From Schmidtea polychroa (Eukaryota), in contig CM097885.1 of the NCBI GenBank assembly GCA_044892525.1, positions 13,270,001 to 13,330,000 on the forward strand: 60,000 nt of DNA. Direction: 5' to 3'. Each line of letters begins with the position of its first letter. Positions within the stretch are counted from its first letter, which is position 1. Below the pieces are notes generated by a model. That model did not search any database. It was not told the DNA's origin and was given only the letters and a program-made list of their open reading frames with translations. Shown here piece after piece: positions 2,107 through 56,654 of this stretch. The position numbers and the translations under genes were made by a program.

Positions 2107-2215
2107 TATTATTATTATTGTTATTATTATTACTACTATTAGTGTTGTTACCATTAACATTTTCACTCTTGTCATTACCATTACTATTATCATTATCATT
2201 ATTAAAATGATTATT
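1950..2215. repeat. (TTA)n microsatellite with degenerate flanks
   Basis: Direct reading; it explains the poly-I and poly-L ORFs in the track. Confidence 0.95.
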
Positions 2216-2703
2216 TTTTTTTGAAATAAAATTTTAACCAAAATTATTGATTTTGGGATCCCCATATTTCTAAATTTAGTTGAAATGACCCTATCTTCCA
2301 ATAAAATTTTAGAAAACTACTGAAATCTATTTTTAGTAACAAGCCCCCCCCCGGAAAACGACGTCAGGATCAATAACTTAAATGATAAGTTTATGCAGTT
2401 ATAAATGTATATGTGTATATGTCCGTGTGTGTACATATGTTTGCCTATATTAATAATAGCCTCATAGAGGTATGGTTGTCTCTCAGATTATCGTATGATG
2501 GAACACCAGTAGAAGGATTGGAGCCCGCTAGACCAGGAGCCCGCTGGACCACATATACCCCCCCCCGGCCGGAAAATTTTTAAAAAATTTTCTAAGTCTA
2601 AAAGTACATTTTTTTCAAGGTCAAATTTTAAACAAAGACATATGACTCATCAAGGTCATTTAAACAAAGACCATGACTCATCAATACCATTCTCAAGGTC
2701 ATA

Positions 2704-4518
2704 TGCCTCCTCTTGGGTTAGGTTGATTCTGGATGCAGATGCCAAGGGATTCGCGTGGCTGTCTTCTGGTCTAATATTAGGCATGCATGTGAGATTAAGA
2801 GGAATATTAGTAAAATTTCTGTTCGTTCATCTACGTCTGGTTACCCCAAGACGTTTAATACACAATTACATTTAAGTTCAAACGTGACCCGTATTTCAAC
2901 AATATTTTAGGTAGTGAAATGGACTTAAAGTGCTAATTAATTTCCCTTTCTGATTTTTCGATTTAATTTAAATCGGCTTGAGAATTACAAAATTCAAGGT
3001 TTATGAGTACCAGTTACGAAATTGCAGTTCGTATATTTAAATTGGGAATCAATAAATTTAGGTTTGATGAATTAATAGCTGGTACAGTAAAAATGGGTAA
3101 TTAAAATTTTATAAATTAAACTTCCAATACCGATTGTTTAAATCATTTAAAGATTTAATTCATTAGTTTATACCAGTTTATATTAATTTAAATATTACTT
3201 TTCATTTAATAATTTTCAAGAATTCTCTGTCAATAATTTTGACAAAAATTGTGCTACTAGGACCCACTATGGGAAGCGGGTATTGTAAATTGTCTGGATT
3301 TACATTCAGCTCTTTGCGAATCTCTGACCATAGTGGTTGTAAGTGGCTCTCTCATCAACTGATACTTGACGAGTAAGTTAAATTTTGATTTTTTTATATT
3401 TATCTAATTTCAGGAATGGGTCTCCAAACACTTCACTTTAAACATGACATCTTAAATAATGGATTCGAGATACTACTGCCTGACGGTAGTCCAAAATATG
3501 CCGGCACACTAAATTCGTGTGGTGTTTAGCTGGGAATTGTTATTCATTTCAGATTTTGGGTCTATGCCGTGGAATTTTAAGATCACAATTTGCACTCGAG
3601 GGCGTTCAGAGATCTTTCATTTGTTTTCGAGAATTTACAGTGATGGGAGTAATTGGTTAAATAATTCTCGCAAAGCGCGCATCCAAAGTGACTTTATGTA
3701 TTTCTATTTATTTATGTCGTTTTCCGTTTTTACTTCGTTATTTTAGTCAATAAATTCAGCTAGATTTTTTGAGTTTTTAATTTTAAACAACCCTACTGAA
3801 ATATTTCAGTTCTTTAAGGTAACTTCGGCATAATTTTATTTTTTCTGGGGTAGGTAAATGAACTAGGGTGTTAGTAGAAGGATTGGAGCCCGCTAGACCA
3901 GGAGCCCGCTGGACCACATATACCCCCCCCCCCGGCCGGAAAATTTTAAAAAAATTTTCTAAGTCTAAAAGTACATTTTTTTCAAGGTCAAATTTTAAAC
4001 AAAGACATATGACTCATCAAGGTCATTTAAACAAAGACCATGACTCATCAATACCATTCTCAAGGTCATATGCCTCATCGTGATGACTCATCAACAAAGA
4101 CCATGACTCATCAATACCATTCTCAAGGTCATGTGACTCATCGTGATGACTCATCAAGGTCATATTATTATTTTTAAAAAATATTATTATTTTATTATTA
4201 TTATTCAAAATATTATTAGTGATCCAGCGGGCTTTTGGTTTTCGTTTGCCCAAAAGTTGTCGTTCCAATCATTTTATTTCATCGTTCGATAGCTCATTTT
4301 AAAGCTTAGTGCAAGACCTTTCGAATGAGCTATTGAAGGTATCATCATCATTAATATTGACAAAGTTATTATCGTTTTCCCGAGACCATTTTCAAGGTCA
4401 TATAATTATTATTAGTATTAGTATTAATCTATATACTCCGAGTTTATCCGACAAAATATTTTGTCCCCCTATGGGTAATGCTCACAAGGGTACTGCTCAC
4501 GCTCAACAACTCGCAATG

Positions 4519-4554
<36 letters not shown>

Positions 4555-4783
4555 GTTTTAGCACACACTCATTATACCAATATGAATTTAGTTTTCATGG
4601 TGTATCAAATCAAAACTCCTATTTTTATAGTCTATCAACCAATCAGAACATATGTTATTTCAGTAGTAATATAAATAAAGCAGTATATTAAAAATTATTT
4701 GACTGCAACATACACAAAAACATACCATATTACTTTTTCCATCATTAGATACTTAAAGAGTTTAATTAACAATATTATAAAAT
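2704..4783 (+). repeat. Left arm of a ~2.08-kb near-perfect inverted repeat (partner 5889-7966)
   Basis: Reverse complement of 5889-7966. Mirrored ORFs confirm it (3519+/6924-, 4023-/6401+, 4309+/5998-). It consists of captured flank (2704-3872) plus the TIR (3873-4783). Confidence 0.97.
3982..4162 (+). promoter_or_regulatory. Subterminal repeat array with 6x TGACTCA and 5x TCAAGGTCA (mirrored at ~6507-6687, partial copy at ~2616-2701)
   Basis: TGACTCA at 4010, 4041, 4084, 4104, 4134 and 4147; TCAAGGTCA at 3982, 4017, 4060, 4123 and 4154. These are the AP-1 and NR5A/ERR consensus sites; function is inferred. Confidence 0.4.
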
Positions 4784-4953
4784 GTAACTAATGATGAAAA
4801 AAGTAATGAAAACTATAACGAGTTTTCGAAAATAAAAATTATCTACATAATAAAATAGAATGCAAAATAATGTTTTAAAAGATTTATTAATAAAACATCA
4901 TTATCAATATTATTATTTTCAACTTCCGTGATCTTTTCGCCGTTTGCCCATTT

Positions 4954-5313
4954 TTAGTTCTTTTTCAAGATTCTTGATGTTTTCATCATACATCTTCCTC
5001 TCACTTCCCGTTTTTTATTCTCATCAGTTAGCCTTTTCCTCGACTCCTGTACTAATTGTTTTAGGTAGTGACTGTGAGCTTCCTGTCGAGTATTCTCTAA
5101 TGCTGACCACTTGGCGGCTCTTTTACATGCCTCTGCCTCTGCTCGTAAATTTTGCACCAACCATTGGAATTGGTGGTTCTCCCGTTCTCTTGCTTCTTCG
5201 AGATAGTTTCGTGTCTGATTTGCTAGTTGTACCATCACTTTGGCCCATCTTTCTCTGTGTACTTTATTGATTTTTACTTCGTTGTTTGGGGCTTCAGTTC
5301 TTTCTTGTGACAT
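4954..5313 (-). CDS. Hypothetical 119-aa charged helical/coiled-coil protein, the only plausible cargo ORF of element A
   Basis: ATG in AAAATG context, higher GC than its surroundings, and an E/R/K/Q/A-rich non-repetitive translation. It lies in the unique core between the TIRs. No family recognised. Confidence 0.5.
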   Translation of the reverse strand: MSQERTEAPNNEVKINKVHRERWAKVMVQLANQTRNYLEEARERENHQFQWLVQNLRAEAEACKRAAKWSALENTRQEAHSHYLKQLVQESRKRLTDENKKREVRGRCMMKTSRILKKN

Positions 5314-5888
5314 TTTATCTAAATAACGATATTATTAACCATGTTGTGAATTTATTACTATCATTATTATTATTATTATTATTGATATTATTATTATTAT
5401 AATTATTATTATTAATATTATTATTATTTTCAAAGATATTTTCAAATTTATTATTATTATTATTATCAACAAGTCGCAAGAGTATTATTATAATTATTAT
5501 TATAGATATATGTAGCTGCATGCTGACTGCAACATACATTTTCAAATATACATTGTAAAAAGTTTTAAACCATATTACATTTTCCATCATTAGATACTTA
5601 TAGAGTTTTTTTTTACTAACAATATTATTATAAAATATATCTAATGATGAAAAAAGTAATGAAAACTATAACGAGTTTTCGAAAATAAAAATTATCTACA
5701 ATATGAAATAGAACGCCAAAATAAATGTTTTTAAAAGATTTATTAATCGCTTAATAAAACATCATCGATATCGACGTCATTATCAATATTCACATCAATA
5801 TTCATATCAATATTTACATCAAAATCAATATTGTCATCAGAATCACAAAAGCTCAGGCTCATTTCGCTAAAAAGTGGTCCAACTTCAA

Positions 5889-6117
5889 ATTTTATAATAT
5901 TGTTAATTAAACTCTTTAAGTATCTAATGATGGAAAAAGTAATATGGTATGTTTTTGTGTATGTTGCAGTCAAATAATTTTTAATATACTGCTTTATTTA
6001 TATTACTACTGAAATAACATATGTTCTGATTGGTTGATAGACTATAAAAATAGGAGTTTTGATTTGATACACCATGAAAACTAAATTCATATTGGTATAA
6101 TGAGTGTGTGCTAAAAC

Positions 6118-6150
<33 letters not shown>

Positions 6151-7966
6151 CATTGCGAGTTGTTGAGCGTGAGCAGTACCCTTGTGAGCATTACCCATAG
6201 GGGGACAAAATATTTTGTCGGATAAACTCGGAGTATATAGATTAATACTAATACTAATAATAATTATATGACCTTGAAAATGGTCTCGGGAAAACGATAA
6301 TAACTTTGTCAATATTAATGATGATGATACCTTCAATAGCTCATTCGAAAGGTCTTGCACTAAGCTTTAAAATGAGCTATCGAACGATGAAATAAAATGA
6401 TTGGAACGACAACTTTTGGGCAAACGAAAACCAAAAGCCCGCTGGATCACTAATAATATTTTGAATAATAATAATAAAATAATAATATTTTTTAAAAATA
6501 ATAATATGACCTTGATGAGTCATCACGATGAGTCACATGACCTTGAGAATGGTATTGATGAGTCATGGTCTTTGTTGATGAGTCATCACGATGAGGCATA
6601 TGACCTTGAGAATGGTATTGATGAGTCATGGTCTTTGTTTAAATGACCTTGATGAGTCATATGTCTTTGTTTAAAATTTGACCTTGAAAAAAATGTACTT
6701 TTAGACTTAGAAAATTTTTTAAAAATTTTCCGGCCGGGGGGGGGGGGTATATGTGGTCCAGCGGGCTCCTGGTCTAGCGGGCTCCAATCCTTCTACTAAC
6801 ACCCTAGTTCATTTACCTACCCCAGAAAAAATAAAATTATGCCGAAGTTACCTTAAAGAACTGAAATATTTCAGTAGGGTTGTTTAAAATTAAAAACTCA
6901 AAAAATCTAGCTGAATTTATTGACTAAAATAACGAAGTAAAAACGGAAAACGACATAAATAAATAGAAATACATAAAGTCACTTTGGATGCGCGCTTTGC
7001 GAGAATTATTTAACCAATTACTCCCATCACTGTAAATTCTCGAAAACAAATGAAAGATCTCTGAACGCCCTCGAGTGCAAATTGTGATCTTAAAATTCCA
7101 CGGCATAGACCCAAAATCTGAAATGAATAACAATTCCCAGCTAAACACCACACGAATTTAGTGTGCCGGCATATTTTGGACTACCGTCAGGCAGTAGTAT
7201 CTCGAATCCATTATTTAAGATGTCATGTTTAAAGTGAAGTGTTTGGAGACCCATTCCTGAAATTAGATAAATATAAAAAAATCAAAATTTAACTTACTCG
7301 TCAAGTATCAGTTGATGAGAGAGCCACTTACAACCACTATGGTCAGAGATTCGCAAAGAGCTGAATGTAAATCCAGACAATTTACAATACCCGCTTCCCA
7401 TAGTGGGTCCTAGTAGCACAATTTTTGTCAAAATTATTGACAGAGAATTCTTGAAAATTATTAAATGAAAAGTAATATTTAAATTAATATAAACTGGTAT
7501 AAACTAATGAATTAAATCTTTAAATGATTTAAACAATCGGTATTGGAAGTTTAATTTATAAAATTTTAATTACCCATTTTTACTGTACCAGCTATTAATT
7601 CATCAAACCTAAATTTATTGATTCCCAATTTAAATATACGAACTGCAATTTCGTAACTGGTACTCATAAACCTTGAATTTTGTAATTCTCAAGCCGATTT
7701 AAATTAAATCGAAAAATCAGAAAGGGAAATTAATTAGCACTTTAAGTCCATTTCACTACCTAAAATATTGTTGAAATACGGGTCACGTTTGAACTTAAAT
7801 GTAATTGTGTATTAAACATCTTGGGGTAACCAGACGTAGATGAACGAACAGAAATTTTACTAATATTCCTCTTAATCTCACATGCATGCCTAATATTAGA
7901 CCAGAAGACAGCCACGCGAATCCCTTGGCATCTGCATCCAGAATCAACCTAACCCAAGAGGAGGCA
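5889..7966 (-). repeat. Right arm of the ~2.08-kb inverted repeat: right TIR (5889-6797) plus host flank (6798-7966)
   Basis: Reverse complement of 2704-4783, with only a few differences seen (one TTA unit, homopolymer length, a substitution near 2852/7818). Confidence 0.97.
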
Positions 7967-8386
7967 GACGAAGTCACCAGACTGGACCAGGAGGATGAAC
8001 TCACTCGCCTGAGGTCCAGGTGGATCTGGTATAAGATCCATGATTGGACCTACCAGAACACAATTCCAGTGATCCCGAAGGTGGAACCATATATTAACTA
8101 CACCTCGTTGGCTTTGAGCGCCGCCTTGGACGACGCGAAGGAGGCGGTGAACCGGTTGCACCGGCTCGAAGTAGCAATCCTAGCCGGCGAGCTCGAAGAC
8201 ATCGACGGTTACGCTCGAACCCAATGCCATCCTAAGCGGACCGCAGCCCTTCGCCGTGGGCTGGAATGCCAGAGAAGTCCTCCGCGAGGGCCGGACCATC
8301 CGAGAAAACGCGGACGCCCACGAAAAACCGCCAGCTCAGCCAAGGAGATTGCCGAACCGAAAGCTAGCGTTGTGCGACACGCCTAA
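7886..8386 (+). CDS. Hypothetical 166-aa protein with a C-terminal AT-hook (PRKRGRPRK)
   Basis: ATG-started ORF coinciding with a GC-rich island in AT-rich DNA; canonical RGRP AT-hook core with basic flanks. Confidence 0.6.
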   Translation: MPNIRPEDSHANPLASASRINLTQEEADEVTRLDQEDELTRLRSRWIWYKIHDWTYQNTIPVIPKVEPYINYTSLALSAALDDAKEAVNRLHRLEVAILAGELEDIDGYARTQCHPKRTAALRRGLECQRSPPRGPDHPRKRGRPRKTASSAKEIAEPKASVVRHA

Positions 8387-8835
8387 CATCTGCGTTGTGA
8401 TCAAAGACTATGACTTGTAATAGAAACCCATTAGCATGCAATGACTTCGTTATTAAATGTACAGTGTGATATTATGTAATGTGATGGACGTCTTTGATCC
8501 AGGGGTAAAATATTACTCTTTATGTCTCGGTAGTTCATATTTATCTAATTGTTTGTTTGTGTTTTGGTGGTCGATATTAATTTAATTGTTTGTATTGCCT
8601 TATTTCTGATAATTTTCTTTAACATTGACTATTATTATTATTATTGACTATAATTTTCCTTAACGTTGACTATTATTGCCAGCCCTATAAGGTTTTGGTA
8701 AGATTCATAGAACTAGGTTTAGGTGTGCGTAGAGGAGGGCTGCGATGAGGAGATTACATTCATTTAGCATTGATACTCATAATGATGCGCGACACTCGAT
8801 GCTGATGTGAAAATTACTAATGTTGTCTTATTTTA

Positions 8836-9294
8836 GTGCTAAAACTCCTGGAAGAAATGTGGGCAGACAGAGAGCGAGCGCAACAACAAGCAGAGGAATA
8901 CCGGGCCAAGCTGGCTCGGATCAACGCCCATTGCCGGAATTATAAAAACACCTGGTTCCCGCCGGCGGAAATGAAACAAATGAAGCTGATTGCTCAACTC
9001 CAACTCCAGAGTACGCAGGACCAGGTTGAGTTGCGGGCTCTCCGTCTAAGATTGAGGGAGCTAGAGACCAAGGTGTACCAACAAGATATCGATCGGGAGG
9101 TCATTTCCAACATCCGGCCCATGAGTGAGTTGCTCCACAAACCGAAGGAGTACGCACCACCGATAATCCCGAGGAAGAGGATCCGGCCGGGTAAAGCGGC
9201 GCGGGCGAGGATAAGACAAGCCAGCCAGGCCCAATTAACACTTCATTCAGCTGTGTCAGAGCCTACTCCGAAAGAATCAACCAAGACACTATAA
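8836..9294 (+). CDS. Hypothetical ~152-aa coiled-coil protein with a basic C-terminus (probably a 3' exon)
   Basis: GC-rich ORF beginning at a TCTTATTTTAG acceptor-like site (~8836); AATAAA at ~9314 just after the stop. Confidence 0.5.
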   Translation: MLKLLEEMWADRERAQQQAEEYRAKLARINAHCRNYKNTWFPPAEMKQMKLIAQLQLQSTQDQVELRALRLRLRELETKVYQQDIDREVISNIRPMSELLHKPKEYAPPIIPRKRIRPGKAARARIRQASQAQLTLHSAVSEPTPKESTKTL

Positions 9295-9374
9295 GTTCTG
9301 ATTGTGTTTTCCGAATAAATCGTTACTGGTACATCCATATCTAGACATTTTGATTTTTCCATAACGTTAATTGT

Positions 9375-9580
9375 CGCAACGGGGACCTAACGAAATCGGA
9401 CATAGGCCTTCTATCGGCAGTCCGTGAACCCCAGTGGGTGCTAGACAATTATAATGTGTTAAGCACGCTCACTTTTTGCTAGTACCCAAACCCTTGATAC
9501 AGTACCAACGTTGATTGCTCAACGGGTATCAAGTGGTCAGCTATAAATTGTATTCTGGGTTACGCTGGAAACAGCATAAG
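9375..9580 (+). repeat. Dispersed repeat, homologous to ~47310-47510
   Basis: Shared collinear motifs ACATAGG(C/T)CTTCTA.CGGCAGTCC.TGAAC, CCAACGTTGATT and TGTATT.TGGGT.ACGCTGGAAACAGCA. Confidence 0.7.
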
Positions 9581-10559
9581 GAGGTAGAGATTTTGCAGTA
9601 CATGTAACCCACCAAACAGTTTAGTGATTAAACCGATAATAATCTTAAATTTTTAGGCATGTTATTATAATTATACTTGTCATACGACGTTACCAGATAA
9701 TTTGATGATCGAAATGAAGAAGAAATTGTAAATCTTTATTTTATGACATTTTATATTTTGGTGAATTTTGGAGGAGACCAGATTGAATGGATGTTCGTGC
9801 ACTGTTGGCACTCGTGTGATGACCAGTGGATGTCCTGGGAGTTTGGCACCTCAGGGTGAGAGTCAAACAGTTGAGAAAGGCATGCTGAGTAGGAAGCAGA
9901 AGTTTAGAGAATTTGATCTTGAACGTCTTATGCAGATGAATAAAACTACAGGCCAATCTGAAATTATGTCCATATTTCTTACATCGAAATTCAATCATGT
10001 TATGTGAAAATCTGCTTAGTACATAGCCAGCGTAGAGGCGAACGTTTTGAGCTGAGAAAAACTCGTAGGACAACAAACATAGATAAGTTCGTCGTCGGAT
10101 TTGAGGTATAAATCATAATTCGGAACATTGATAGTATGGAATAAAATACGTCGTGAATATCCATTTTTTTCAAATAAACACCAGCAGGCGACGTTCGGCT
10201 ATCATTGAACTGCTATCGAGACGTCTCGACTTCGACAGAGAATATTTGACTAAATAAACAATAGCTCCGTTATGTACACACTGCCATTCGAGAGGCCGGA
10301 AATGCCCATCAATTAGAAATTTATCAATATCATAGATCTGAGTGCATCATGTTATCTTATAATCTTTCTCAAGTATCGACCGTAGAGAAGCTGGAGCGGT
10401 CCAGGTAGTAGATAAAACCCGATACACCTGTGTAATCTCTACATTCATGGCAGTCGTCTACTGGTTTGTTTGTTTACGCTCATCCAACAAATAGATTTTT
10501 GGGTTTTTTTTTGTGACAAAAACACAACACATAGTAAAAAATGCATGCAAATTTTCGAT

Positions 10560-11160
10560 ATGTAGAATCGTTGCAATGAATAAACGCACTATAATAAATC
10601 ATTTACAGACATTTTTAGAATTTTTTAGAAAAAATTGAATGAAAAAATATTTAACGAAAATTCCGAAAACTCAACTTTGAGTTGTATAGATAATGAAGAC
10701 ATTATTTCGTAAGATTTATCTTAAATTTTTAATAAATTTAATAGTTTTTTAGTATTTCAAATTGCCCTGAAATCTCAACTTTGCCGTCTGATGTTGGGAA
10801 AAAACTAGAAAATCGTAAATTAGATTAACCTAAATTTAAAACTTAATATTTCTATAGATTTTTATAATTTCGGGCTATTATTAGGAATTCGCAAAGAATC
10901 AATCAGAAATATAATTTATAAATATAAAAATTTAATAAATTGTATTAATAAATTGTATTTAATAAATAGTACTTAATTACTTAATAAAATAATAATAAAA
11001 CTCACATTATATTGAAATAATTCCAAATAATAATAATAACATCTAAAACTCTTGAAAAATTAATTAAAAATAATTTATAATAAAAAATGTTGATAAAAAG
11101 TATTATTTAAGAGCTTGAATAATGATCTCATATCTCAAGCCTTAAAGTTTACTTTAAATA
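10560..11160 (+). repeat. Diverged inverted homologue of ~31385-32300
   Basis: Collinear anchors on opposite strands: CGTAAGAT, GAAAATCGTAAATT, CATTATAT.GAAATAATTCCAAATAAT, AATTAATTAAAAATAATTTATAAT, AATAATGATCTCATATC and TCAAGCCTTAAA.TTTACTT. Confidence 0.75.
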
Positions 11161-11499
11161 AAAATAAATTACTTGAAAGCCATTTCTAAAAGGGCTAAAT
11201 ACAATTATTTAAAATAGCTAAATAAAGTAGCTAAATAAGTAATTGAATGTATGTAGTTAAATTAACCACATGCATTCCAAAAATTTTCACCATAAAGAAT
11301 GACGCATCTATAATTGGTTGTACATACCAACCCATATTATAGATGCGTTTATTCAGTGCAAACAGGTGAGTAGGTAGATAGTGGCTTACGGGAACAATTA
11401 CCCCCCCCCGGGGGGGGGGGGGAGGGGATTGTTCCCAAATTTTTATTACGCAATTGTTCCCAACTCATTTTTTTGCTTTCAGGGATTTTTGGTCCAAAT

Positions 11500-12375
11500 T
11501 TTTTTTTTATCACACTATAGTGAGAGGGTCTTGATGGTCCTGGGATTTTCAATACAAAAATCCGACTACCACTAAAAAAGCCAAGGATTTTTCAGACTAT
11601 AGTGAGGTGAGTCTCCTTGGTCCTGAGAAATAGGTGGTCTACACTAAAAAGCATGGTAATTTAAGGTCTCAGGATATTTTCAATACAAATAGGTGGTCTA
11701 CACTAAAAAAGCCAAGGATTTTTCAGACTATAGTGAGGGGGTCTCGATGGTCCTAGGATTTTCAATACAAATAAAATTTTTTCAATACAAAAACGATGGT
11801 CCTGGGATTTTCAATACAAAAAATTTTTTTCTATACAAAAATCCGACTATCAATAAAAAAGCATGGAATTTTCAGACTATAGTGAGGGGGTCTCGATGGT
11901 CCTGGGATTTTCAATACAAAAATCCGACTACCACTAAAAAAGCATGGAATTTTCTAGGTCAATTCAGGTGGGTCTCCTTGGTCCTGGGATTTTCAATACA
12001 AAAAAAATTTTTTAATACAAAAATCCGACTATCACTAAAAAAGCATGGATTTTTCTAGGTCAATTAAGGTGGGTCTCCTTGGTCCTGAGAATTTCAATAG
12101 AAAAATCCGACTATCAATAAAAAAGCATGGTAATTTAAGGTCTCATGATATTTTCAATACAAAAAGGCGGTCTTCAATAAAGAAGCATGGTAATTTAAAG
12201 TCTCGGGATATTTTCAATACAAAAAGCTGGTCTACACTAAAAAGCATGGTAATTTAAGGTCTCAGGATATTTTCAATACAAAAAGCTGGTCTACACTAAA
12301 AAAGCCAAGGATTTTTCAGACTATAGTGAGGTGAGTCTCCTTGGTCCTGAGAAATAGGTGGTCTACACTAAAAAA
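11500..12375 (+). repeat. Modular subterminal repeat patchwork (mirror ~27730-28915)
   Basis: Shuffled modules GGTCCTGGGATTTTCAATACAAAA, TCCGACTA(C/T)CACTAAAAAAGC, GACTATAGTGAGG and GCATGGTAATTTAAGGTCTC. Confidence 0.93.
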
Positions 12376-12389
12376 CGTTGTAAATTTTT

Positions 12390-12790
12390 CAATTAAAGTA
12401 AATAATGGTTCTAAAAAATTAAATTACAGTAAATTATGGCTCAAATTTTTAAATTACAGTAAATTATGGTCCTAAAAAATAAATTACAGTAAATTATGGC
12501 TCAAATTTTTAAATTACAGTAAATTATGGTCCAAATTTTTAAATTAAAGTAAATTATGGTTCTAAAAATTAAATTAAAGTAAATTATGGCTCAAATTTTT
12601 CAATTACAGTAAATAATGGTTCTAAAAATTGAATTACAGTAAATTATGGTCTAAATTTTTAAATTAAAGTAAATTATGGTCCTAAAAATTAAATTAAAGT
12701 AAATTATGGTTCTAAATTTTAAATTAAAGTAAATTAAGGTTCTAAAAAATTAAAATAAAGTAAATTAAGGTCCAAATTTTAAATTAAGTA
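12390..12790 (+). repeat. 30-bp tandem minisatellite (mirror ~27260-27715)
   Basis: Unit AAATTA(C/A)AGTAAATTATGG(T/C)...AAATT(TT), in register every 30 bp, about 13 copies. Confidence 0.95.
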
Positions 12791-12934
12791 ATCAATGGTA
12801 AAAAAATTTTAAATAAGTAAATTAAAGTAATAATTTTTAAATTAAGTAATCAATGGTAAAAAATTTTAAATAAGTAAATTAAAGTAAGATTTTAAAATTT
12901 AATTACAAAAAGTTGAAGGTGTTTGAGAATTGAA

Positions 12935-13130
12935 ATTTTTTAATGAAAATTTTCAATGGTAATTTTTAATGAAAATTTTTATGGAATATTTTTTTTAAGT
13001 AATTTTTAATAGAAAATTTTATGAAATATTTTTCAATGGTAATTTTTAATGGAAATTTTTATGAAATATTTTTTAATGATAATTTTTAATGGAAATTTTT
13101 AAGAAATATTTTTCAAAGACAAATTTTAAT
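12935..13130 (+). repeat. ~40-bp tandem repeat (mirror ~26915-27110)
   Basis: Unit approximately AATTTTTAATGGAAATTTTTATGAAATATTTTTCAATGGT, 4-5 copies. Confidence 0.85.
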
Positions 13131-13139
13131 AATAATTCA

Positions 13140-14700
13140 ACAACAAATCAACAACTTAGTACCAACAACCAGTAACTTACGAATATGTATTACCAACCAG
13201 ATACCTACAACTAGTTACCTGATACCAAGTACCAACAACCAAAAACATGCAACCAACTAGGTACCAAGTACTAACAACTAACAACCAACTACCAAGTACT
13301 TACAACTAGTTACTAACAACTAGTTACTAACAACTAGCTACCAACTACTAACAACTAACTACCACCTACCAAGTACCTACAACCAACTACTAAGTACTAA
13401 CAACCAAAAACAACCAACTAGGTACTAGATACCAAGTACTTACAACAAACATCAACCAAGTACTTACTACCAACTACCAAGTACTTACAACTAGTTACTA
13501 ACAACTAGTTACCTGCTACCAAGTACTTACAATTAGTTACTAACAACCAGTTACCTGATACCAAGTACCTACAACCAACTACTAAGTACTAACAACAAAA
13601 AACAACGAAGTACCTACAACAAATTACCAGATACCAAGTGCCTACAACTAGTTACTAACAACTAGTTACCTGATACTAAGTACCTACAACCACCTAACAA
13701 GTACTAACAACCAAAAACAAGCAACCAAACAGGTATCAGATACCACCTACTAAGTACCAACAACCAACTAGTTACCAGATACCTACAACTAGATACTAAC
13801 AACTAGGTCTCAAACAACTAAATACTAACAACCAGGTACTAAGCATTAATTACCAACTACTAAGTACCTACAACTAGATACTAACAACCAGTTACCTGAT
13901 ACCAAGTACTAACAACCGTCAACAACCAGGTACTAAGCCTTATCAACCTACAACTAGTTACTAACAACCAGTTACCAACTACTAAGCATTAATTACCTAC
14001 AACTAGTTACTAACAACTAGATACCAAGTACATACAACCAGACACTAAGCATTATCAACCAAGTACTAACAACTAAATACTAAACACTAACAACCGACAA
14101 TAACCAGGTACTAAGCATCATCAACCAACTACTAAGTACCTACAACTAGATACTAACAACCAGTTACCCATTAACTAGCTACAACCAGCACTCAACTAGC
14201 TACCAACTACTAAGTACCTACAACCAAGTACTAACAACTAGATACCTAGTTACTAACAACCCGCTAACAACTAACAACTAGATACCAAGTACCAGTAAAT
14301 TACGAACATGTATTAACAACCAGATACCTACAACTAGTTACTAACAACTAGTTACCTGATAGCAACCAACTAGCTACCAACTACTAAGTACCTACAACCA
14401 ACATCAACCAGGTACTAAGCATTAATTACCAACTACTAAGTACCTACAACCAACTAACAACCACCTACCAAGTACTAAGCATTATCAACCAACTACTAAG
14501 TACCTACAACCAACTAGCTACCACCTACCAAGTACTAACAACCAGTTACCAACTACTAAGCATTAATTACCTACAACTAGTTACTAACAACTAGCTACCA
14601 AGTACATACAACCAGACACTAAGCATTATCAACCAAGTACTAACAACCAAGTACAAGATACCTAGTACTGTCAACTAGATACCAAACACTTACAACCAGA
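13140..14700 (+). repeat. Strand-asymmetric C/A-rich, G-poor short-motif patchwork (mirror ~25345-26910)
   Basis: Shuffled CAACTAGTTACTAA, CCAAGTAC(C/T)TA, ACTAAGCATTA and CAACCAAC motifs. Confidence 0.93.
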
Positions 14701-15069
14701 TGACCACATGAAATTATTGGTTAAATATGAAAATAAGGGTTATAATTAGTTGTTTAGTAAATTATGGTGTAAAATTAAGTAATAAAGCATAAATAGGTAA
14801 ATTAAGGATAAGTAAATTAAAGTTAAAAAATTAAATTAAAGTTAATTAAGGTCCAAATTTTAAAAATAAGTAAATAATGGTTCTAAAAATTAAATTAAAG
14901 TTAAATAAGTAAATTAAAGTAATAATTTTTAAAGAATTTAATTAAAGTAATAATTTTTAAATAAGTAATGTAATAAGTAAATAAAAGTAAGATTTTTAAT
15001 TTTATTATCAAAAGATTGAATAATAACCAACTTTTTTGAGAAATGTAATTTATAATGAAAATTTAAATG

Positions 15070-15070
<1 letters not shown>

Positions 15071-15150
<80 letters not shown>

Positions 15151-15160
15151 TAATAATAAT
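15071..15160. repeat. (TAA)n microsatellite (mirror 24858-24974)
   Basis: Direct reading; the right-arm copy is nine units longer. Confidence 0.95.
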
Positions 15161-17384
15161 TCAACAGTTACCAACAATCGGTTACTGATTATTTTTTAAC
15201 TAGGTGCTAACAAATACTTACAACTAGATACCACGTACTAACTAACTCTCAAACAACCAGATACTTACAACTAACTACTAAATATTCTTCACTGTATTTT
15301 ATGAAATGATTTTTAAATTAATATTTTTTATACAGCTTCTATAATAATTTTAATTACAATCAGTAAAAAAACCTTTTCAAAATGTCTAAATTTAACAAAA
15401 ATGTTGATTTTCATCAAAAAACCACAACTCAACCACTTTAAAACACCACGTGGAATTCAAAATAATTACAATGAAAGACTAATGAATTCTAATTTACAAA
15501 ACATTCTTCTTTTAAATGATAACTACTGACTTATTATTGCAAAGTAAAAATCACATTCAATAAATACTTATTATTGATCAGTTTTATTATATATACTCTG
15601 AGTTTATCCGACAGGATGTTTTGACGCCCTAAGGGTACAGGTCGTAAGGGTATTAGTCGTAAGGGTACTGGTCGTAAAGGTACTAGTCGTAGGGGTATTG
15701 GTAACACTTAACCACAACCTACCCATTAACTAGCTACTAAGTACTAACCACTAGGTTTCAAACAACAACTACTAACAACCACCATCAAAACCCATCGAGA
15801 AATTAACAAATATCAACCTACAACTATATAACAATCAGTAAACAACACTGTACCAACTACCAAATACAAGATACCAACAACTTAGTACCAACAATCAACT
15901 AACAACACATAAAAATAATAGCAATTAAATACAAAATATTCTTCATCGCATACACTATTTTCTTATCAAAATCTAAAAAGTCAATCAGATACCAACTACC
16001 AAGTACCAAGTACTAACAACCAACTACCTAGAACCAACAACTATGTACTAACAAATTGATCTTTAAAAGCAAATACTCTTCACTTGAAAAATTGGATGAA
16101 AAATTATTTGAACTCAATGCATCAATAACTTGGTAAAAATTGATTAAATAATTGTAAAAATTTAAATTATTCAAAATAAATATCATAAAAATTTAATTAA
16201 TGGACAAGAAAAAATTCTAATCATCCAATAAATAAAAAAAAATGCTGATCATTCAAGTTGAATCAACTAAGATAATAAATTAATAAGATAAGATCTAGTA
16301 GATAATTGATTAAGATTGAATAAATTAATTTAAATAAAATTTAATTTAATTATTTTTGTAAAAGTAATACATGTACTCAAATTGATTGACTGATTTCTCA
16401 ATATATTCAAAAAAAATCAGTATAAATTCATTACAATTATCAAAGTCAGCAATCTACAATAAAAATAATTATCATAAAATTCCAAAAGAGACTAGATAAC
16501 TAATGATAACATCTAATAAACCAGTAAATTTATTTAAATGACAATAATTGGTATATCCTAGTGAATTCTCCAATTTCTCATTTCCTCCCAAATATATCAA
16601 TATGTAAAGATTAGTATTGTAATGATAAATACTTGTTAAAGATCATATATTTACCTCAAACTAACAAGATTCCTTAAAATCCCTTAAATGACTATATTTC
16701 TACCCTTAATTCATATTATTACAAATATTTCACTAAAATCATCTAAAAAGCATCAAATTTCCCTGAAATAACTCTATCTTTTAAGATTGATATTTTAATG
16801 ATAAGTACTTGTTAAAGATCATATATTCCCCTCAGACTAATAAGATTGCTTAAACTCCCCTTTAAATGACTATAATTCTAACTTTAATTCCTATTATCAT
16901 ACATGTTTCACTATTGATAAAACCGGTTATAATTAACTTTTTGTTAATCACTGTACTCGAAATTTAAAATAAATATAACTGACTAGGTCCCATTAAAAGA
17001 TTAAATTTATCCATTCAATAAAATATATTTCTTCAAATGATCATTTTTACCAATATTCAACCGATTTAATTACTAATTAAAATCAAGATTTCTTCCAATA
17101 AAGATCAATTTTATTTAGTCGATGTTTTAAGTCCATATTTCTAAACTTTTGTCATTCTCCGCCTAAATAAAGATAAAAATAAATTAAAGTTGATATCAAT
17201 CCCAATTATCTGTAAAGATTTCATTGTCAAAACCAAGTAAATCGATCATTATCCCTACTTAATAAAACATTGTTCTAAATTAATTTACTGTGCATTAATC
17301 ACAACCTAATAAAACGATATAATTATTATTGATTCATAACTGACTAATGTATTGCAATTTCCTTAAAAAACATTGATATTTTAC

Positions 17385-17740
17385 CAACATCACCCTTAAA
17401 AAATCATATATTCCCATCGAAACCCTTCCCTCATTAAAAGCAACCGACTATATCTCCCTTACAATAATATATTCCCATCTTAACCCATCTCACATTAAAT
17501 CTAACCGACTATATCCCCCTTAAAAGATCATATTTTCCCCATCTTAACCGATCTCTCATTAAATCTAACCAACAATATCCCATCTTAACCGATCTCTCAT
17601 TAAATCTAACCGACTATATCCCTTTAAAAATCATATATTCCCATCTCTCATTAAATCTAATCGATAATATCCCATCTTATCCGATCTCTCAGCAAATATT
17701 TCTACCCTTTTAAACATCTATCCGATTATATCCCTTAATT
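17385..17740 (+). repeat. Degenerate tandem patchwork (mirror ~22280-22635)
   Basis: Recurring CCCATCTTAACCGATCTCTCATTAAATCTAACCGACTATATCCC. Confidence 0.85.
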
Positions 17741-19337
17741 TCCCTAAAGATTCCACCCACTTGAACCCTTTAATATATATCAATCCTCTTAATATCCTTA
17801 GAGAACTTCAAAAAGTATGAATTTTCATAAACTGTTAAAGACACCAGGCATTCTTCCATTGAAATAATTTAGAAGCTAAATAATAAGAGCCCACTAAAAG
17901 ATCAAAATTTACTAAAATTTTCTACAAATATTTACCATCAAATACTGGAGATGATATATATTGATTGATCATAATTCTTCATCGATTCAACCAATCATTT
18001 TCAAGCAATAACAGCAAACTAAATTTCTGTATATCCTACAATAATTATCAAGTAAATTTAAAGTCATTGATAAATATTCTTAGAAAATTATTGAAAAAAA
18101 TTATCTAGTCAAATATATTACAAAGTTATCATCAAAAATTTATTCTATCACTTAATTATTAACCTAATTGTCAATGAAATTAATTTTTATTTAAAAACTA
18201 TTCAATAAAATACAACTAATTATCAAGAAATTAACTAAATTTATCAATTAAATTTATCACCATTAAAACTTTTAATCAGTCAACATGAAATTCTTAGAAA
18301 ATTATTCAATATCCTCATAAAAATTTATCCTACCACTTCATTATTGTAAAATCTCTAATTATTAACCTCATTGAAAATAATTTTTATTTAAAATTAAAAA
18401 AAAAACAAGTCAATAAAAATACATCCAATTATCAAGAAATTAATTAAATTTATCTTAGAATTAGCATTAAATTATTAAATATTCATTCAATAAACATGAA
18501 ATTTGCAAAAATGTTAGAAATCCATGAAAATGATAGAAATTTACTTGAATAAAACCATCAACTCTAAAAATTATCAATGAATGCCTTATACAAATTTGTC
18601 TAAATAATCATTCAAATAAAAGCATTAAATACCTTTACGACTAATACCCTTGCGACATGTTGAATGTGAGTAGTACCCTTGTGAGCAATACCCATAGGGG
18701 GACAGAATATTTTGTCGGATAAACTCAGAGTATATATTAATTAACTCATTCTTCATTGAATTAGTCAAATTATCATAATTTCAATAAAAATTCTAAAGTG
18801 GTAAGCAATGAAAAGACAATTATTCTTTAAACTTTGATAAAATTAACAATGAAGGTGGTAAGAATCTTCATTAAAGTGAGGAAATTATTCATTACTCGAT
18901 TCAAATGGGTGAAAATAATTGGTAGAATAATTCATTAATGTAGGTAGATAATGAGAAGTAGTATAGATAAGATGAAGGTTGATAAGAATGGATGTATTGC
19001 AACTATTTTCTAAAAATTAACACTTTAATAAAAAAAAACTTTTAAAACAAATATTTGTGGGGATGTTTTAAGTGAATAATTAATCAAAATCGGCGGAATA
19101 TAAGTAGAAAATCGGGGTGGGGGTTATAGGCGAATAATTAATGGAAATTCGAGGGGATATAAATGAATAATTAATGGAGAATCGGGGGAATATAGGGATT
19201 AAATAGTGGAGAATAATAGTGAATATAAGTGAGAAGGATACATAATTTAAACTATTTTATTACGTAACAAGCCGTGACTAGTTTATTACATAACAAGCCG
19301 TGAATGATATTTTACCAACATTATACATGGTATATAA

Positions 19338-19760
19338 CAACGGTGGGCAAATGCGGCTCTTAGAGCCGCATGCGGCTCTTCGTTGAGTAAACTGCGGCTC
19401 TTTGATAATTGAATTTTTGATAATTGAATTTGAAAATTGAATTCGATTTTTTTATTTTGAAATTTTTTCAACTGAATTTTTAAAAAGAAATTTTTTGTTG
19501 CAATTGTATTTTCATGGTTAGTTCATTTTTACCTGTGTCACAAAATAGGTGTAAACAGAATTAAAATTTATAGTGTCATTCGATGGCGGTATTTAGAATC
19601 AAAATTTAATATTTCCTTATTACATTCTACCTTGTTTGATTCTTTTTATAAGCAATATTTAAATAATACATGTCTCACTACACTATATGCCAGGGGTGGG
19701 CAAGTGCGGCTCTTTGATGAGCCATGTGGCTCTCTAGGACCTCATGCGTGCCCACCCCTG
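19338..19760. mobile_element. Non-autonomous hAT-type element (423 bp) in the core of element B
   Basis: Perfect 8-bp TSD GTATATAA (19330-19337, 19761-19768). Ends CAACGGTGGGCA...TGCCCACCCCTG, subterminal TGCGGCTC/GAGCC motifs, and a second left end CAGGGGTGGGCA at 19691. Confidence 0.85.
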
Positions 19761-19829
19761 GTATATAACTTTAATTTTAATTGTATTTTTAAATTGTATA
19801 TATTTTCAATATCATTCTATTGTTTAATA

Positions 19830-20690
19830 CCAATAATAAGTATAAAAAGTCTATAATGAAAAATAAATTAATATCTTGTTAACATTTATCTGAGAATTTA
19901 AAAAACTTTACTTTAATTTTGTGAAGTATTTAATTTTGATTGTATTTTATAAGACATATATTTGAGTATTAGCTTATTTTGATTGAAGTTTCATATTATG
20001 ATGTTTGTTTTCTTAATTGAAATTTTTTAGTGTAAAATAGTAAATTTAATAATAAATAGAATACAATATTAAAGGACTTTTTGAAAAAAATAGTAACTTT
20101 CTACTGCCTAATCAATAAGTTTAAAAAGTCTATAACAGCTAATACACTAATTTCTTATTTACATTTACTTATAAAATTTATATTTCTAAATTAAAGTATT
20201 AAATTGATGATTTAATTTTAATTGTATTTGAATGATACATTTAATTTACTTTGATTGAAAGGAGTAATATAATTCATATTATGATATTTGTTTTCGAAAT
20301 ATTTAGTGTAGAATAGTAAACTTAATAATATATAGCTATTATTACAATATTAAAGGACTTAGTCATAATTTTGAAAAAAAAAATAACCTAAGTAACTTTT
20401 TATTTCTATTACATAATTCCGTCAATAAGTTTAAGTCTATACCCGGTAAAAATTAAATTATTATTTACATTATTCGAGAATTTGAAAAACTTATAAAATT
20501 TATATTTTTAAAATTTAATTTTGATAGTATTTTCTAAGACTTATATTTGAATATTTAACTTATTTTGAATGAAAAGGGTAATATATATATATATTGTTTT
20601 TGAAATACATAATGCAAAATAAAACATTTTAGTAATATCTTGCAATTATTTTAGAATTTATTTTAGTCAAAAATTAAAAAAAAAATGACC
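19830..20690. repeat. Three diverged ~280-310-bp tandem units in the core of element B
   Basis: Anchors AATAAGT.TAA(AAA)GTCTATA at ~19834, 20114 and 20424; TACAATATTAAAGGACTT at ~20082 and 20343. Confidence 0.7.
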
Positions 20691-20709
20691 TATTCCATAT
20701 TTCTTAATC

Positions 20710-29059
<8,350 letters not shown>

Positions 29060-31381: not shown

Positions 31382-32661
31382 AAATTTTAAGTAAATTTTA
31401 AGGCTTGAATTTTTATCCATATGGATATGAGATCATTATTTAAGTTCTTAAATATTACTTTTAGTCAACAGTTGTATTATAAATTATTTTTAATTAATTT
31501 TCCGATTTTTTAAGGATTTTTATTAAATTATTTTTAGAATTATTTGGAATTATTTCGATATAATGTAAGCCAGATATATTTTTAAATATAAATAAATAAA
31601 GTAATCGCCAAACACAATTCTAATTTCTTAAAAGATGCATAAAAATTGAATTCTACGAAATGCAACAAATTATTTGCCTGTTCTTCTGAAATGATTTGTT
31701 TTCTGCTATCTCTTTGTCCTTTGCAAAGTTTCCATATTTTTTATATCTGTAAATTATTATTATTTCAATTCTTCAACATTTTCAAAGGCATTAATTAGTC
31801 GAATTTTGTGATGTTATTGTAATTCTATTAAAATATAATTTTTTTTAAATAAGTTATTAAAATTTACGATTTTCGAATTTTTTTCTGCAAATCCAAAGAT
31901 GTCGAAGGACTTTGTTCAATATTTGAAATTTTACATTCACATAAAGACAGCGTTTTCAGAGAAATATCTGACATACTGTAAACTATTTTAACTATTTGTA
32001 ATTTAATGAATAAATCTTACATTGTCAATTCTTTACCTTCGCAAAAAAGCAGCGTTTTCAGAGAAATATTAAATTTAAAATTATTTTATAATTAGATCTT
32101 ACGATGCTTTATTGTCTTTTTCTCTACAGTTCAAATTAGAGTTGTCCAATTCTTGATAAAAAAATTTTTCAACATGATTTTTTAATATTTTGAAAATAAT
32201 AATATTTTAACAATATGTTAATCTCTTTTTAATTTTAAAACGAAAAATGCTATAAAAAATTTTCATGAATTCTAATTGTGTGCTGCGTTTGTATGTAAAA
32301 TTATTTTTCTGTCACTTTCTCAATTTCTATATAAAAACGTTTAAGTTTTGAAACATGAAATTTTTACACACAGCCAAGTTTGTGTGTTCCTATAATGCAA
32401 TACTCTAACCTAATTGGTAGCCTTTCTATAATTTAATAATGCTAATCATTGTCCGTGTTGATTCTAATGACTGTCAGGCGGAGAGTTGTGAATTAAAAAT
32501 TAAAAAAAGAAAAACAATTTCGGGTTGAATAGAAATTCCAAAAATCGAATAATCGATTTTCGATCTATTTCATATTAAAATGAAGGTCTAATGCTTTGTA
32601 AACGTCGATGCCATTCATCCGCTATTAGAAGAAATGTTTTATTTTTTTAACATTCGGAATT

Positions 32662-33555
32662 ATGACAAACAAACAATTTCCAGCTGTTTTCAATTTATTG
32701 AAAAAATTTGAAGGAAAAAAACCACCAGTCGTTCCTTGGAGTTTTGAATTGCTGACAATTGAAATCCAAGAAAGAATTGATGCCAACATTGTCAACATAA
32801 TGCCTTCAACTATTTTCTGTTTGTTGGGTCATATGATAATCGCATTAGAGGATGACAAAAACAATCGTCTGCAAGAGCTTCTCTCGATGGCGATAAGTGA
32901 GAAGAAACCGACAGATGAAAGAATGAAAATGATTCAAAGAATCGACGTCTGTGGCAAATTTACAACGAGTGAAATTCTAGCGTCGTTGTTTGAGGTTTAT
33001 AAACGTTGCGAAGGTGGTATTCATTTTACGTTTCAATATCCCATCGATTCTTGGATTATAATCGGACCTCCAAGAGCGATGACTGAATGGAATAATAACA
33101 CTTCAAGGGTATGCAAAGATTTAGATATAGCGCTTAGTGATTTTTGTAAAGAAGATCCCATTAGAAAAGATTTTTTTTGTTTTAATATGCAATTTTTGTC
33201 GCTGCTTGTTCAAAAAGCAATCGACGACAATCGGTCAAAGTCAATTATTGCCCAACAAATTTGTAGAATTATTTCATTAATATTGGCAAACAAACTGATC
33301 AAAGTCCAATGTAGCAGCTGTTCGACGTACCTTACGACCAAACGAAGATCGGTCACCTGTGGGACCTGTGGAGATGTTTATAAATTTTGTCAAAGTGACA
33401 TTGTTGAAAATTGTATGCAGTGTTTACTGCAATATGTTCCGTCGGTGTTTTGGATAAATGCAATGAGCAATCCTCGGGTCAGTTCTTTCATTCGGCGAGA
33501 CGTTCAAGAAGTCAAAAGAAGTCTCATTGAAGCTTATAAAATGAATTTAAAGTAA
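32662..33555 (+). CDS. Hypothetical intronless 297-aa protein with a C-terminal Cys cluster (CxxC-x12-CxxC...C...CxxC)
   Basis: Longest ORF in the window, ATG start, non-repetitive; an ORF this long is improbable by chance at this AT content. Family not recognised. Confidence 0.7.
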   Translation: MTNKQFPAVFNLLKKFEGKKPPVVPWSFELLTIEIQERIDANIVNIMPSTIFCLLGHMIIALEDDKNNRLQELLSMAISEKKPTDERMKMIQRIDVCGKFTTSEILASLFEVYKRCEGGIHFTFQYPIDSWIIIGPPRAMTEWNNNTSRVCKDLDIALSDFCKEDPIRKDFFCFNMQFLSLLVQKAIDDNRSKSIIAQQICRIISLILANKLIKVQCSSCSTYLTTKRRSVTCGTCGDVYKFCQSDIVENCMQCLLQYVPSVFWINAMSNPRVSSFIRRDVQEVKRSLIEAYKMNLK

Positions 33556-50591: not shown

Positions 50592-50684
50592 GTAAGCAAA
50601 TTTCAATCAATTGTCTTAGTTGTTATTTTACATAAAAGATTAAACTATTTTTAACTGAAAGTTTATAATTATCTCTTTGTAAAG

Positions 50685-50975
50685 GTCGAAACGAGTTGAT
50701 AGCAAGGTATATAAAAATGCAAACCGGCAAAAGTCGATCACGCAAACAAGTATCTAGTCACATTCAAGTGTTGGCTCGAAGAAAATCCAAAGAAATCCAA
50801 AATCAAATCCAAGAAAAACACACGAGAGAGCAAGCAAGACAACAGTTGGCCAACATGAGCAGTGCCCAAATCGTTTCTGATTTTAAAATCAAAGAAAATC
50901 TATCATTATGCAATGACAATAGAAACAAATCTCCAAAATTTGTCGATAACAATATCAGTTCTTTTTCAAATACTC
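50685..50975 (+). CDS. TEAD: TEAD coding exon 2, rest of the TEA domain
   Basis: Acceptor AAAG| restores [39 protein letters not shown]...[11 protein letters not shown]; donor C|GTTAGT at 50976, phase 1. Confidence 0.94.
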
Positions 50976-53081
50976 GTTAGTAAAATTAATTAAAATTAAT
51001 TAAAAATAATTAAAATTAATTATTAATTAATTTTAATTTTGCTGTTTTTATTTTTAAAAATTAAATTTACAATTTTTAATTATTAATTATTTGGTTTTTT
51101 TAATTTAAAAAGTTTTTTGTATAAAAGTTTGAAAATTTTTAAAATTGTTTTCGAATTTTTTTTAATAAAAAAAATCAATTTTTTAATTATCAAATTATCA
51201 TTAATTTATTTGAAAAATTATCTATTTATTTCTATTGTATTGATTATAAATTGTAAGGATTATTTCAGACATGCCCAAACATTAAAAAAATTATCAATTT
51301 TTGTGACTCGCCTGGAAAAATCACTTAATAAAAATTCGATTTTTTATTTAATCAAATAAACATTAATTACTATATTAATAAAACACTTAGTAATTATTCG
51401 CATTAGCAATAAATAAATAGCAAAATGACTTTGTAATGGGCTTAAAGCATGTATTTGTCAATCCTAATAAATGTTTCCGACATCTATATTATACAAAAGA
51501 TAATTAAAAACAGAATTCCTTAAAATTATAAATGTTATTAGTTTTTCCCATTTTTTGCAAAATTTTTTTTTTATCATTTAAAAATTTAAATTTTAGATCA
51601 AAACTTTAAAAATCACTACAGAGTAACCACGCAGAAATGGCAATTTCTAAATGAATGTCTATAGTTCTATCCTTTCGCGTTTCTTAGTACAAAATATTTT
51701 TAAAATTTTCACGCGCCTGATAAAACATTTAATTTGCGATCTAGACTTTGACAATCATTAATGTATTTTATTTTAATTAAAAAAATATTTTAATAATCCT
51801 ATTTCCATTTCTCACACTGTTTCCCATTTTTATTACTTTTGTGTTTTTGCGTTAATTAAATTATTTCCCGAAAAAAATTCGTTGGATTTATTAATGATAA
51901 TTTTTTTTGTTTGGAATTCAAATCCATTTTTAATGAAAACTTATTGCAAATGATGAATCAAAATCGTGAATGAAAAAAATAAAATTTTCACCATGACACA
52001 CATACACCGGAAATTCCGCCAATCAAATACAAGCAGGCTAAGCATGAAAATCACAATTTCACTATTTTATCGATTGTGCTAAAACCGCATAGCGAGTTCA
52101 ATGAACTTTATTTTGAGCACCAATCAAATTTGTATCTGAGAAGGTTTTTATTTATCATCTTAAAATAGCTTTTGCAAATAATAAATCAATTTCAACTGTA
52201 TGGTCAATCATAAATATATGTTAATTACTAAAATACGTTTCAATCAGTTTCCTAATTTAATTTTTTTTTCTAAATTTATTACAAAAATCAAGTGGAAAAA
52301 ATTGAAAAATGCTTTTTATTTTCATATTTATCATTATAACAGAAAAATATTCAATAAATAAAAATTTTTCATAAAACCTGTAAAATTTACAGAATACAAA
52401 TTAATTCCATTTCAGTTTTCTGCATGAATTCATTGAAAAATAATTATCGATTAAATTTTTTTTGGATTTTCTAATTGAAAGCATCACCGCACAATTATTG
52501 ACGTTTAAAAAAAATCTATTTTCGATATTATAAAAATATATTTAACAGAAGTCAAAAATAGAAATTAAATAAAAATAAAATTCTCAAAGAAAAAAATTAA
52601 ATAAATTCGAAATTTACAGATAAAATGCCAAATTAAATTTAAATTAATTTCCTTTAATTACAATGTCTATATCGACATCCAATAATGTCATATACACCAG
52701 GATCATCTACTACTGGAAACAAAAGAGCATCGATTCTTAACCAAACCATCCGAAACGTTTGTTTAAAATCATAAATTCATTTCTTTTTATCCTATTTAGT
52801 GTTTCTTAATTCCTTATGATCAGTTTTACTAAACACTTTTCTCCATCAATTTTATTACTATTTACAATATCAATTGAAAAGAAGTCAGTGGTGAAGATTG
52901 AAAAAAGTTCTTATAATATTAATTGAAGATATTATTATAAACATTTATTTAGTAATATCAACCTAAGAAATATTTTATTATAAAATTGAGACTGTTGATC
53001 AATAAATTCAATTTAATAAATTAATTAAATTTATTGATTTATAGAATCATAAAAAGAAATCGAAAATAGTCGATCAATGAC

Positions 53082-56486: not shown

Positions 56487-56575
56487 TGTCGTGGGAAATT
56501 AATTTTCCGTGGAATTTAATTTCCAAAACATATATCAAACAAATTGAGGGTGTTATTTTTTGCAATTAACAAAGA

Positions 56576-56654
<79 letters not shown>

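Follow-up and report, generated by a model that had tools for sequence, protein, structure and literature searches.

Maverick/Polinton elements are marked by a 6-bp target-site duplication (TSD), AG...CT ends and long terminal inverted repeats (TIRs; PMC8097293, PMC4196379), the TIRs measuring 46-1,447 bp in vertebrates (PMC8097293). Four-point template switches (Loytynoja and Goldman 2017, PMC5453318) leave and regain the original track, carry the reverse complement of nearby sequence as a middle fragment and make an inverted repeat. In the DUP-TRP/INV-DUP pattern, one junction lies in an inverted repeat and the other at 1-9 bp of microhomology (PMC11293582). The subject of the present analysis is element A, a candidate Maverick/Polinton-like element in a 60-kb stretch of Schmidtea polychroa DNA (GCA_044892525.1, CM097885.1, 13,270,001-13,330,000, forward strand; ∼27% G+C), hereafter the window, within which all positions are counted. 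Element A has three ends and encloses an inverted copy of part of its own right flank. The rearrangement appears to be of a class that is already known, that of four-point template switches and of inverted-repeat plus microhomology junctions. A search of the open-licence literature, supplements excluded, gave no case of the same rearrangement on Maverick-type TIRs with passage through terminus and TSD to the flank.

The three-ended anatomy of element A and its ∼1.17 kb of inverted flank are confirmed in the sequence (Table 1). The 8-mer AGTAGAAG begins at 2508 (+), 3873 (+) and 6797 (-) and at no other site in the window. An earlier note on this DNA had described a left TSD, a TIR of ∼200 bp (2508-2709) and a 6-bp TGCCTC junction, followed by passage through an inverted TSD into a complete TIR (3873-4783) and hence three ends; all of these are present as described, with GGTGTT at 3867-3872 and the 8-mer at each of the three ends. 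The statement that 2704-3872 equals the reverse complement of 6798-7966 holds for 1,168 of 1,169 bases; the copy is real, with a lone mismatch at 2852 (C) against 7818. The complete inverted repeat (2704-4783/5889-7966) extends over 2,081 alignment columns at 99.7% identity. Its arms differ by this one non-homopolymer substitution and by one (TAT) unit, and the divergence of 1/1,163 (95% range 0.00002-0.005) is as expected of some age. An explanation of the 2852/7818 change as CpG decay was dropped (CpG observed/expected is 0.92 for the window and 1.03 for the flank, without depletion).

The junction word TGCCTC is common to the TIR (4071-4076) and the inverted flank (7961-7966). Microhomology of at least 6 bases arises in 418 of 200,000 random TIR-flank junctions (0.002; analytic value 0.0025). 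Over the new junction and 6 bases on each side, 13 of 18 bases are alike, about equally on both sides, so that the direction of synthesis is unreadable from the junction; 7 of the 10 next comparable junction bases are alike (p 0.007, for an interval picked after the fact). A stall hairpin at the switch point reaches only -3 to -7 kcal/mol, with no control, and no claim is made for it.

Of seven public runs, six contain part of 2250-9500, the best of them 0.58 of its words. Contigs of four runs (X1, X3, X4 and X6, from two studies) were placed on 2225-3921; runs X2, X5 and X7 were left out, and the placement excluded the core, the right TIR and the native side of 7966. An empty site is present in two of the four runs (X6 and X1, covering both studies) as a joint 2501->3872 on opposite strands, which reads left flank, one AACACC and right flank. 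This joint confirms the TSD, identifies 6798 onward as true flank and marks 2704-3872 as the secondary copy. The X1 contig differs in 9 of 112 letters and may be another copy of the flank repeat, not the allele. At 2787 both arms carry A and the placed contig depth carries C (all of it in X3, X4 and X6; 2,157/2,200 in X1), and at 2826 both arms carry T and the placed depth again C (all of it in X3 and X4; 640/769 in X6; 509/785 in X1). Since the arms share these two letters against the C of the runs, the inverted copy derives from this locus. The runs look like other haplotypes than the assembled one. The base row for 2852 is missing among the 40 listed (134 more exist), and the polarity of the 2852/7818 change is not usable from the runs.

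The flank stretch itself is covered by several contigs per place in all four runs, with 5-13 differences per 100-230 letters and depths up to tenfold apart within a run, so that the enclosed flank is part of a dispersed repeat. The earlier note's wording that the element encloses host DNA is thus correct as to the enclosure, the enclosed DNA being itself a dispersed multi-copy repeat. Depth over TIR letters 2624-2680 is 780-3,700x that of the median bin of the insert. This ratio does not give a copy number, and depth over the terminal 43 bases is far lower. Those contigs, among the ones listed, that have a joint at 2709 continue into another repeat unit; together with the depth, this indicates that TIR-like sequence mostly occurs without the insert. 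The 63-bp subterminal tandem units, rich in TGACTCA (2567-2709 and 4030-4157), reach very high depth in each of the four runs, well beyond that of the 43 terminal bases, suggesting a subrepeat common to many more elements than the exact end of element A.

Table 1. Positions of the parts of element A, its flanks and element B in the window
Feature	Position	Strand	Basis
Left TSD AACACC, 6 bp	2502-2507	+	Sequence; empty-site joint 2501->3872 in runs X6, X1
Outer TIR (copy 1), cut short at 202 bp, with AGTAG at its start and poly-C of 9	2508-2709	+	
6-bp microhomology TGCCTC at the new junction	2704-2709	+	
Inverted copy of right flank 6804-7966, 1,163 bp, one substitution (2852)	2704-3866	-	
Inverted TSD copy GGTGTT	3867-3872	-	
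Inner TIR (copy 2), full length at 911 bp, with poly-C of 11 and subterminal tandem units of 16 bp and 63 bp	3873-4783	+	
Element A core, 1,105 bp, without Pfam family; diverged second copy (5481-5792) of module 4662-4921	4784-5888		
TIR copy 3: right TIR, 909 bp, ends CTACT, poly-G of 12	5889-6797	-	
Right TSD AACACC	6798-6803	+	
Right flank, source of the inverted copy; last bases GAGGCA (7961-7966); belongs to a multi-copy repeat	6804-7966	+	
Flank open reading frame, 166 codons; switch point after codon 27	7886-8386	+	
Element B: AGTAG ends, TSD CAGGTG, arms ∼8 kb	11369-29059		

Before the event, element A is best read as an ordinary gene-less Maverick/Polinton-like foldback of 2.9 kb (910-bp TIRs, 1.1-kb core and 6-bp TSD) lying in a dispersed repeat. 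Likeness to Maverick/Polinton elements and their gene-less derivatives (PMC8097293, PMC4196379) consists in the 6-bp TSD, AACACC on both sides and in a single copy at the empty site, in the AG...CT ends and in the long TIRs of 909-911 bp. The end word AGTAGA retains AG...CT and matches (AGT)2 at five of six positions, the Maverick terminal motif being (AGT)2 or (AG)3. In contrast to complete elements, no polymerase, integrase or capsid gene is present, and there are three ends: the Maverick genes (protein-primed polymerase B, retroviral-like integrase, ATPase and capsid) were looked for in stop-to-stop frames of at least 50 amino acids overlapping 2500-6800, of which 26 of 31 were scanned, five mirror or edge frames being excluded, with no Pfam family found. 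Element A is therefore at most a non-autonomous Maverick derivative. The exact 21-base end pattern has no match in the metagenome and viral contig collections. An open reading frame in the core (4954-5331, minus strand) encodes 119 residues, charged and probably coiled-coil, all of whose database matches are sub-threshold. The Rfam scan of 2200-11400 gave a single match, below the gathering score and outside element A.

The arrangement most probably arose (probability about 0.58) by a two-switch replication error in place after insertion, with fold-back through the TIRs, return by microhomology and retention of the core orientation. A nascent strand moving from right to left would copy the flank, the right TIR, the core and part of the left TIR, leave its template and fold back onto its own copy of the right TIR, and then serve as its own template outwards across the terminus, the TSD and 1,163 nt of flank. 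GAGGCA at its 3' end would re-anneal to TGCCTC at left-TIR position 197-202, and the strand would resume the original track with a gain of 1.17 kb. Two switches are required, one at TGCCTC and one hidden in the TIR homology; the latter is invisible and could lie anywhere from ∼202 to 910. The event would have occurred in vivo, in the direction given and by host replication rather than Maverick enzymes. The new junction lies inside a TIR and all three ends stand on the original TSD or its inverted copy, indicating an event in place after insertion with no need of an integrase step. The Maverick-type ends of element A would also suit a product of the Maverick machinery itself, whether by aberrant excision and re-insertion or by alternative transposition with sister-chromatid ends. 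Such an origin is extremely improbable: there is no new end-to-target junction and no new TSD, and the sole new junction falls 202 bp into the TIR and involves no element end, a point against an integrase.

Like the four-point template switches of Loytynoja and Goldman (2017; PMC5453318), the event leaves the reverse complement of nearby sequence with a return to the original track, makes an inverted repeat and shows microhomology beyond chance. It differs from them in being kilobases rather than tens of bases long, in having one switch hidden in 910 bp of TIR homology and in lying inside a mobile element. DUP-TRP/INV-DUP and dupINVdup rearrangements (PMC11293582, PMC5338099) resemble it in combining an inverted-repeat junction, here required by the anatomy and invisible, with a microhomology of a few bases and in the inverted duplication of adjacent DNA. 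In element A, by contrast, no unique segment is triplicated (the flank is present twice and the core once, with three copies only of the 202-bp TIR tip), the scale is about a hundred times smaller and the inverted repeats are transposon TIRs.

Several points weigh against the in-place switch as described. TIR copies 1 and 3 agree at TIR position ∼75 and copy 2 differs, so that the fold-back order needs a later change or an error in copy 2. Once homopolymers are compressed, the first 202 bp are the same in all three copies, and the poly-C and T/A differences are therefore weak as evidence of age. The four-point statistics were drawn from short switches, and the present event spans kilobases. 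None of the 32 contig pieces listed spans 2709 (14,588 more exist), and one X6 contig starts exactly at 2704 behind 14 other letters, as native flank would. With the best run at 0.58 of the words and with other alleles in the runs, the junction is without independent support; contigs drop rare variants, and the result of this check of the 2704/2709 junction, which the earlier note had called for, is not evidence of absence.

The same want of junction support among the listed pieces would be expected of a technical chimera, in which a fold-back read from whole-genome amplification or library preparation carried the inverted junction at TGCCTC and the assembler rejoined the right flank via the identical TIRs. 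The geometry also matches: of 475 chimeras of multiple displacement amplification 406 are inverted, 337 of these 406 with less than 10 kb between the joined points, and they are primed at 2-21 bp of complementarity (PMC1855051), as compared with two points 3.9 kb apart and 6 bp in the present case. A chimera of this kind would, however, need a second, assembler-made switch in the TIR, and the substitution 2852/7818 and the (TAT) unit that distinguish the arms would call for two haplotypes or for consensus errors. No second structure of the same kind occurs elsewhere in the window, and the assembled piece is chromosome-scale (at least 20 Mb), so that long reads probably spanned the window. In a chromosome-scale assembly, 5.5 kb is normally covered by single reads. 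A technical origin is thus considered unlikely. The same sequence would also result in vivo from the 3-1-4-2 order (dupINVdup; PMC5338099), in which the first switch takes the strand out of the right TIR and onto the left TIR of the opposite strand, synthesis then runs backwards over the entire element and 1.17 kb of flank, and the microhomology serves for the return; the core would then be inverted, with the former right TIR as copy 2 and, for the most part, a copy of the former left TIR as copy 3. Without any extra change, a switch at TIR position ∼60-75 would account both for the T of copies 1 and 3 (2581/6721) against the A of copy 2 (3948) and for the poly-C lengths, which are close in copies 2 and 3 (11 and 12, against 9 in copy 1). 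The order of homology first and microhomology second is the one described in PMC11293582. This scenario nevertheless confines the switch to ∼16 of 910 bases, its diagnostic site is a homopolymer boundary and the 3-1-4-2 order makes up 1% of short human-chimp switch events, compared with 31% for the order 1-4-3-2/3-2-1-4, to which the fold-back belongs and which makes an inverted repeat (PMC5453318). The 3-1-4-2 order is considered unlikely, somewhat more so than a chimera.

The T/A site (2581/3948/6721), a homopolymer boundary in a 21-bp palindrome, was downgraded as proof of an inverted core. A reading of 2704-7966 as a separate element with 2.08-kb TIRs inserted in a TIR was rejected: past 7966 the sequence enters the flank open reading frame and the TIR is not resumed. 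Microhomology-mediated template switching on the foldback, as the earlier note had put it, remains the best-supported origin, amended in that two switches are needed and that an amplification or assembly chimera retains a minor share of the probability.

Two units within the product of the in-place switch are candidates for mobility, an inner, intact one of 2,925 bp (3873-6797) and an outer, asymmetric one of 4,290 bp (2508-6797). The flank transduction that the earlier note expected of repeated rounds has not happened at this locus: the enclosed DNA is the present right flank, inside the original TSD, at no new site and with no new TSD. Nor has the TIR been lengthened, as the note also expected, since the new 2.08-kb inverted repeat stops at 7966 without an AGTAG end and is not a TIR. 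The locus is best described as a scar from which capture could follow, rather than as proof of transduction or TIR lengthening.

Element B, which judged by its sequence carries the same Maverick-type marks as element A, bears on the origin of long arms. The earlier note had seen in repeated switching a plausible route to its 8-kb patchwork arms and had called for a search for internal fossil AGTAG ends in long-armed copies. In the left arm of element B, no match to the terminus of either element rises above chance (best matches to its own end 11/12, 13/16, 17/24 and 20/32, reached in 44, 68, 32 and 104 of 500 shuffles), and there is no copy of its present flanks. An 11-base match to its end at 18941 is likewise not above chance. 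Tandem arrays occupy 3,483 of the 7,944 bp of this arm (44%), and the proposed route is unsupported. Long arms such as those of element B probably grow inwards instead, internal sequence being copied into the opposite arm and tandem repeats expanding, rather than outwards by flank capture. The lack of a fossil terminus above chance at four lengths and the extent of the tandem arrays favour inward growth, as does the inner edge of the TIR of element A (4783/5889), which falls within a module that is complete on the left (4662-4921) and recurs in the core. On the other side, the sample is one long-armed element, old embedded ends may have decayed and 56% of the arm lies outside tandem arrays.

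For the TIRs of Galileo, recruitment of internal sequence and expansion of tandem repeats have both been described (PMC3573991), and MULEs with one extra TIR are described in terms of 'death on birth', three-ended copies being poorly mobile (PMC3310237). Both resemble the present locus in long-TIR arms that change length or number by repair or slippage, and in three-TIR copies; there, however, the recruited DNA is internal or is the TIR itself, whereas here it is outside flank, read through the terminus and the TSD. The two module copies of element A (4662-4921 and 5481-5792) contain a hairpin and are in direct orientation, and the inner edge of the right TIR cuts the module at the loop. Between the arms of element B (11369-19312 and 20710-29059) there are 10 isolated substitutions over the outer 1,844 bp and one over the inner 6,100 bp, besides difference clusters at 11410-12, 11868-84, 14874-84 and 17912-16; the inner arm seems to have been homogenised more recently than the tips.

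A motif of ∼95 bp is common to the TIR of element A (4402-4524 and 6145-6267), the arms of element B and a small element (56621-56715). It occurs twice per arm in element B (15564-15652 and 18642-18741, with mirrors at 24366-24454 and 21281-21380), the two copies being mutually inverted and 75% alike. The motif in the small element is 78-89% alike, and the motif in element A has no Rfam match. The small element measures ∼290 bp (within 56472-56788), has TGT...ACA ends and ∼45-bp inverted repeats, and sits between identical 15-bp direct repeats (56472-56486 and 56774-56788), an unusually long apparent TSD.

Only the first 27 codons of the flank open reading frame at 7886-8386 were copied into element A. 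Its product falls in no Pfam or PHROG family, 234 candidates of 91-291 amino acids include no homologue, and there is no usable Atlas match. This frame and a second one in the flank repeat (8821-9294, plus strand) are richer in G+C, and neither has a family; an RGRP word in the first resembles an AT-hook. Elsewhere in the window, older dispersed repeats are 68-82% alike (9255-9667/47179-47594, 11001-11159/31384-31569, 31101-31384/39244-39526 and 34531-34940/46377-46731). A TEA-domain exon lies at 50669-50980 on the plus strand (Pfam PF01285, E 2e-13), and a frame of 308 amino acids at 32629-33555 (+) has a weak Xpo1 match below the cut-off.

The open-licence literature found, which leaves out most subscription journals and supplements, contains no account of the way in which Mavericks acquire host DNA. 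In nematode Mavericks, cargo of host origin lies immediately inward of the left end (10.1101/2022.07.12.499685), which is where a TIR fold-back of the present kind puts neighbouring DNA. It is conceivable, if decidedly doubtful, that such an event is the first step of Maverick cargo uptake and of outward arm growth. A single-stranded racket intermediate has been modelled for Polintons, as summarised in PMC4196379. If the 4,290-bp outer unit were mobilised, the right TIR would anneal to the inner TIR in the racket, with 1,365 nt left single-stranded at the 5' end; 3' fill-in over this overhang would then yield arms of 2,276 bp, both with an embedded end, and repeated rounds would make patchwork arms from former flanks. 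A similar repair is known from adenovirus termini, a subject on which the literature search returned nothing relevant. As it stands, the locus is one rearranged copy that holds repeat DNA and 27 codons of a family-less open reading frame. If real, it would represent a base-resolved case of a long-TIR element enclosing its own flank without any transposase step, and the succession of partial TIR, inverted flank, inverted TSD and full TIR would be a signature that can be counted genome-wide.

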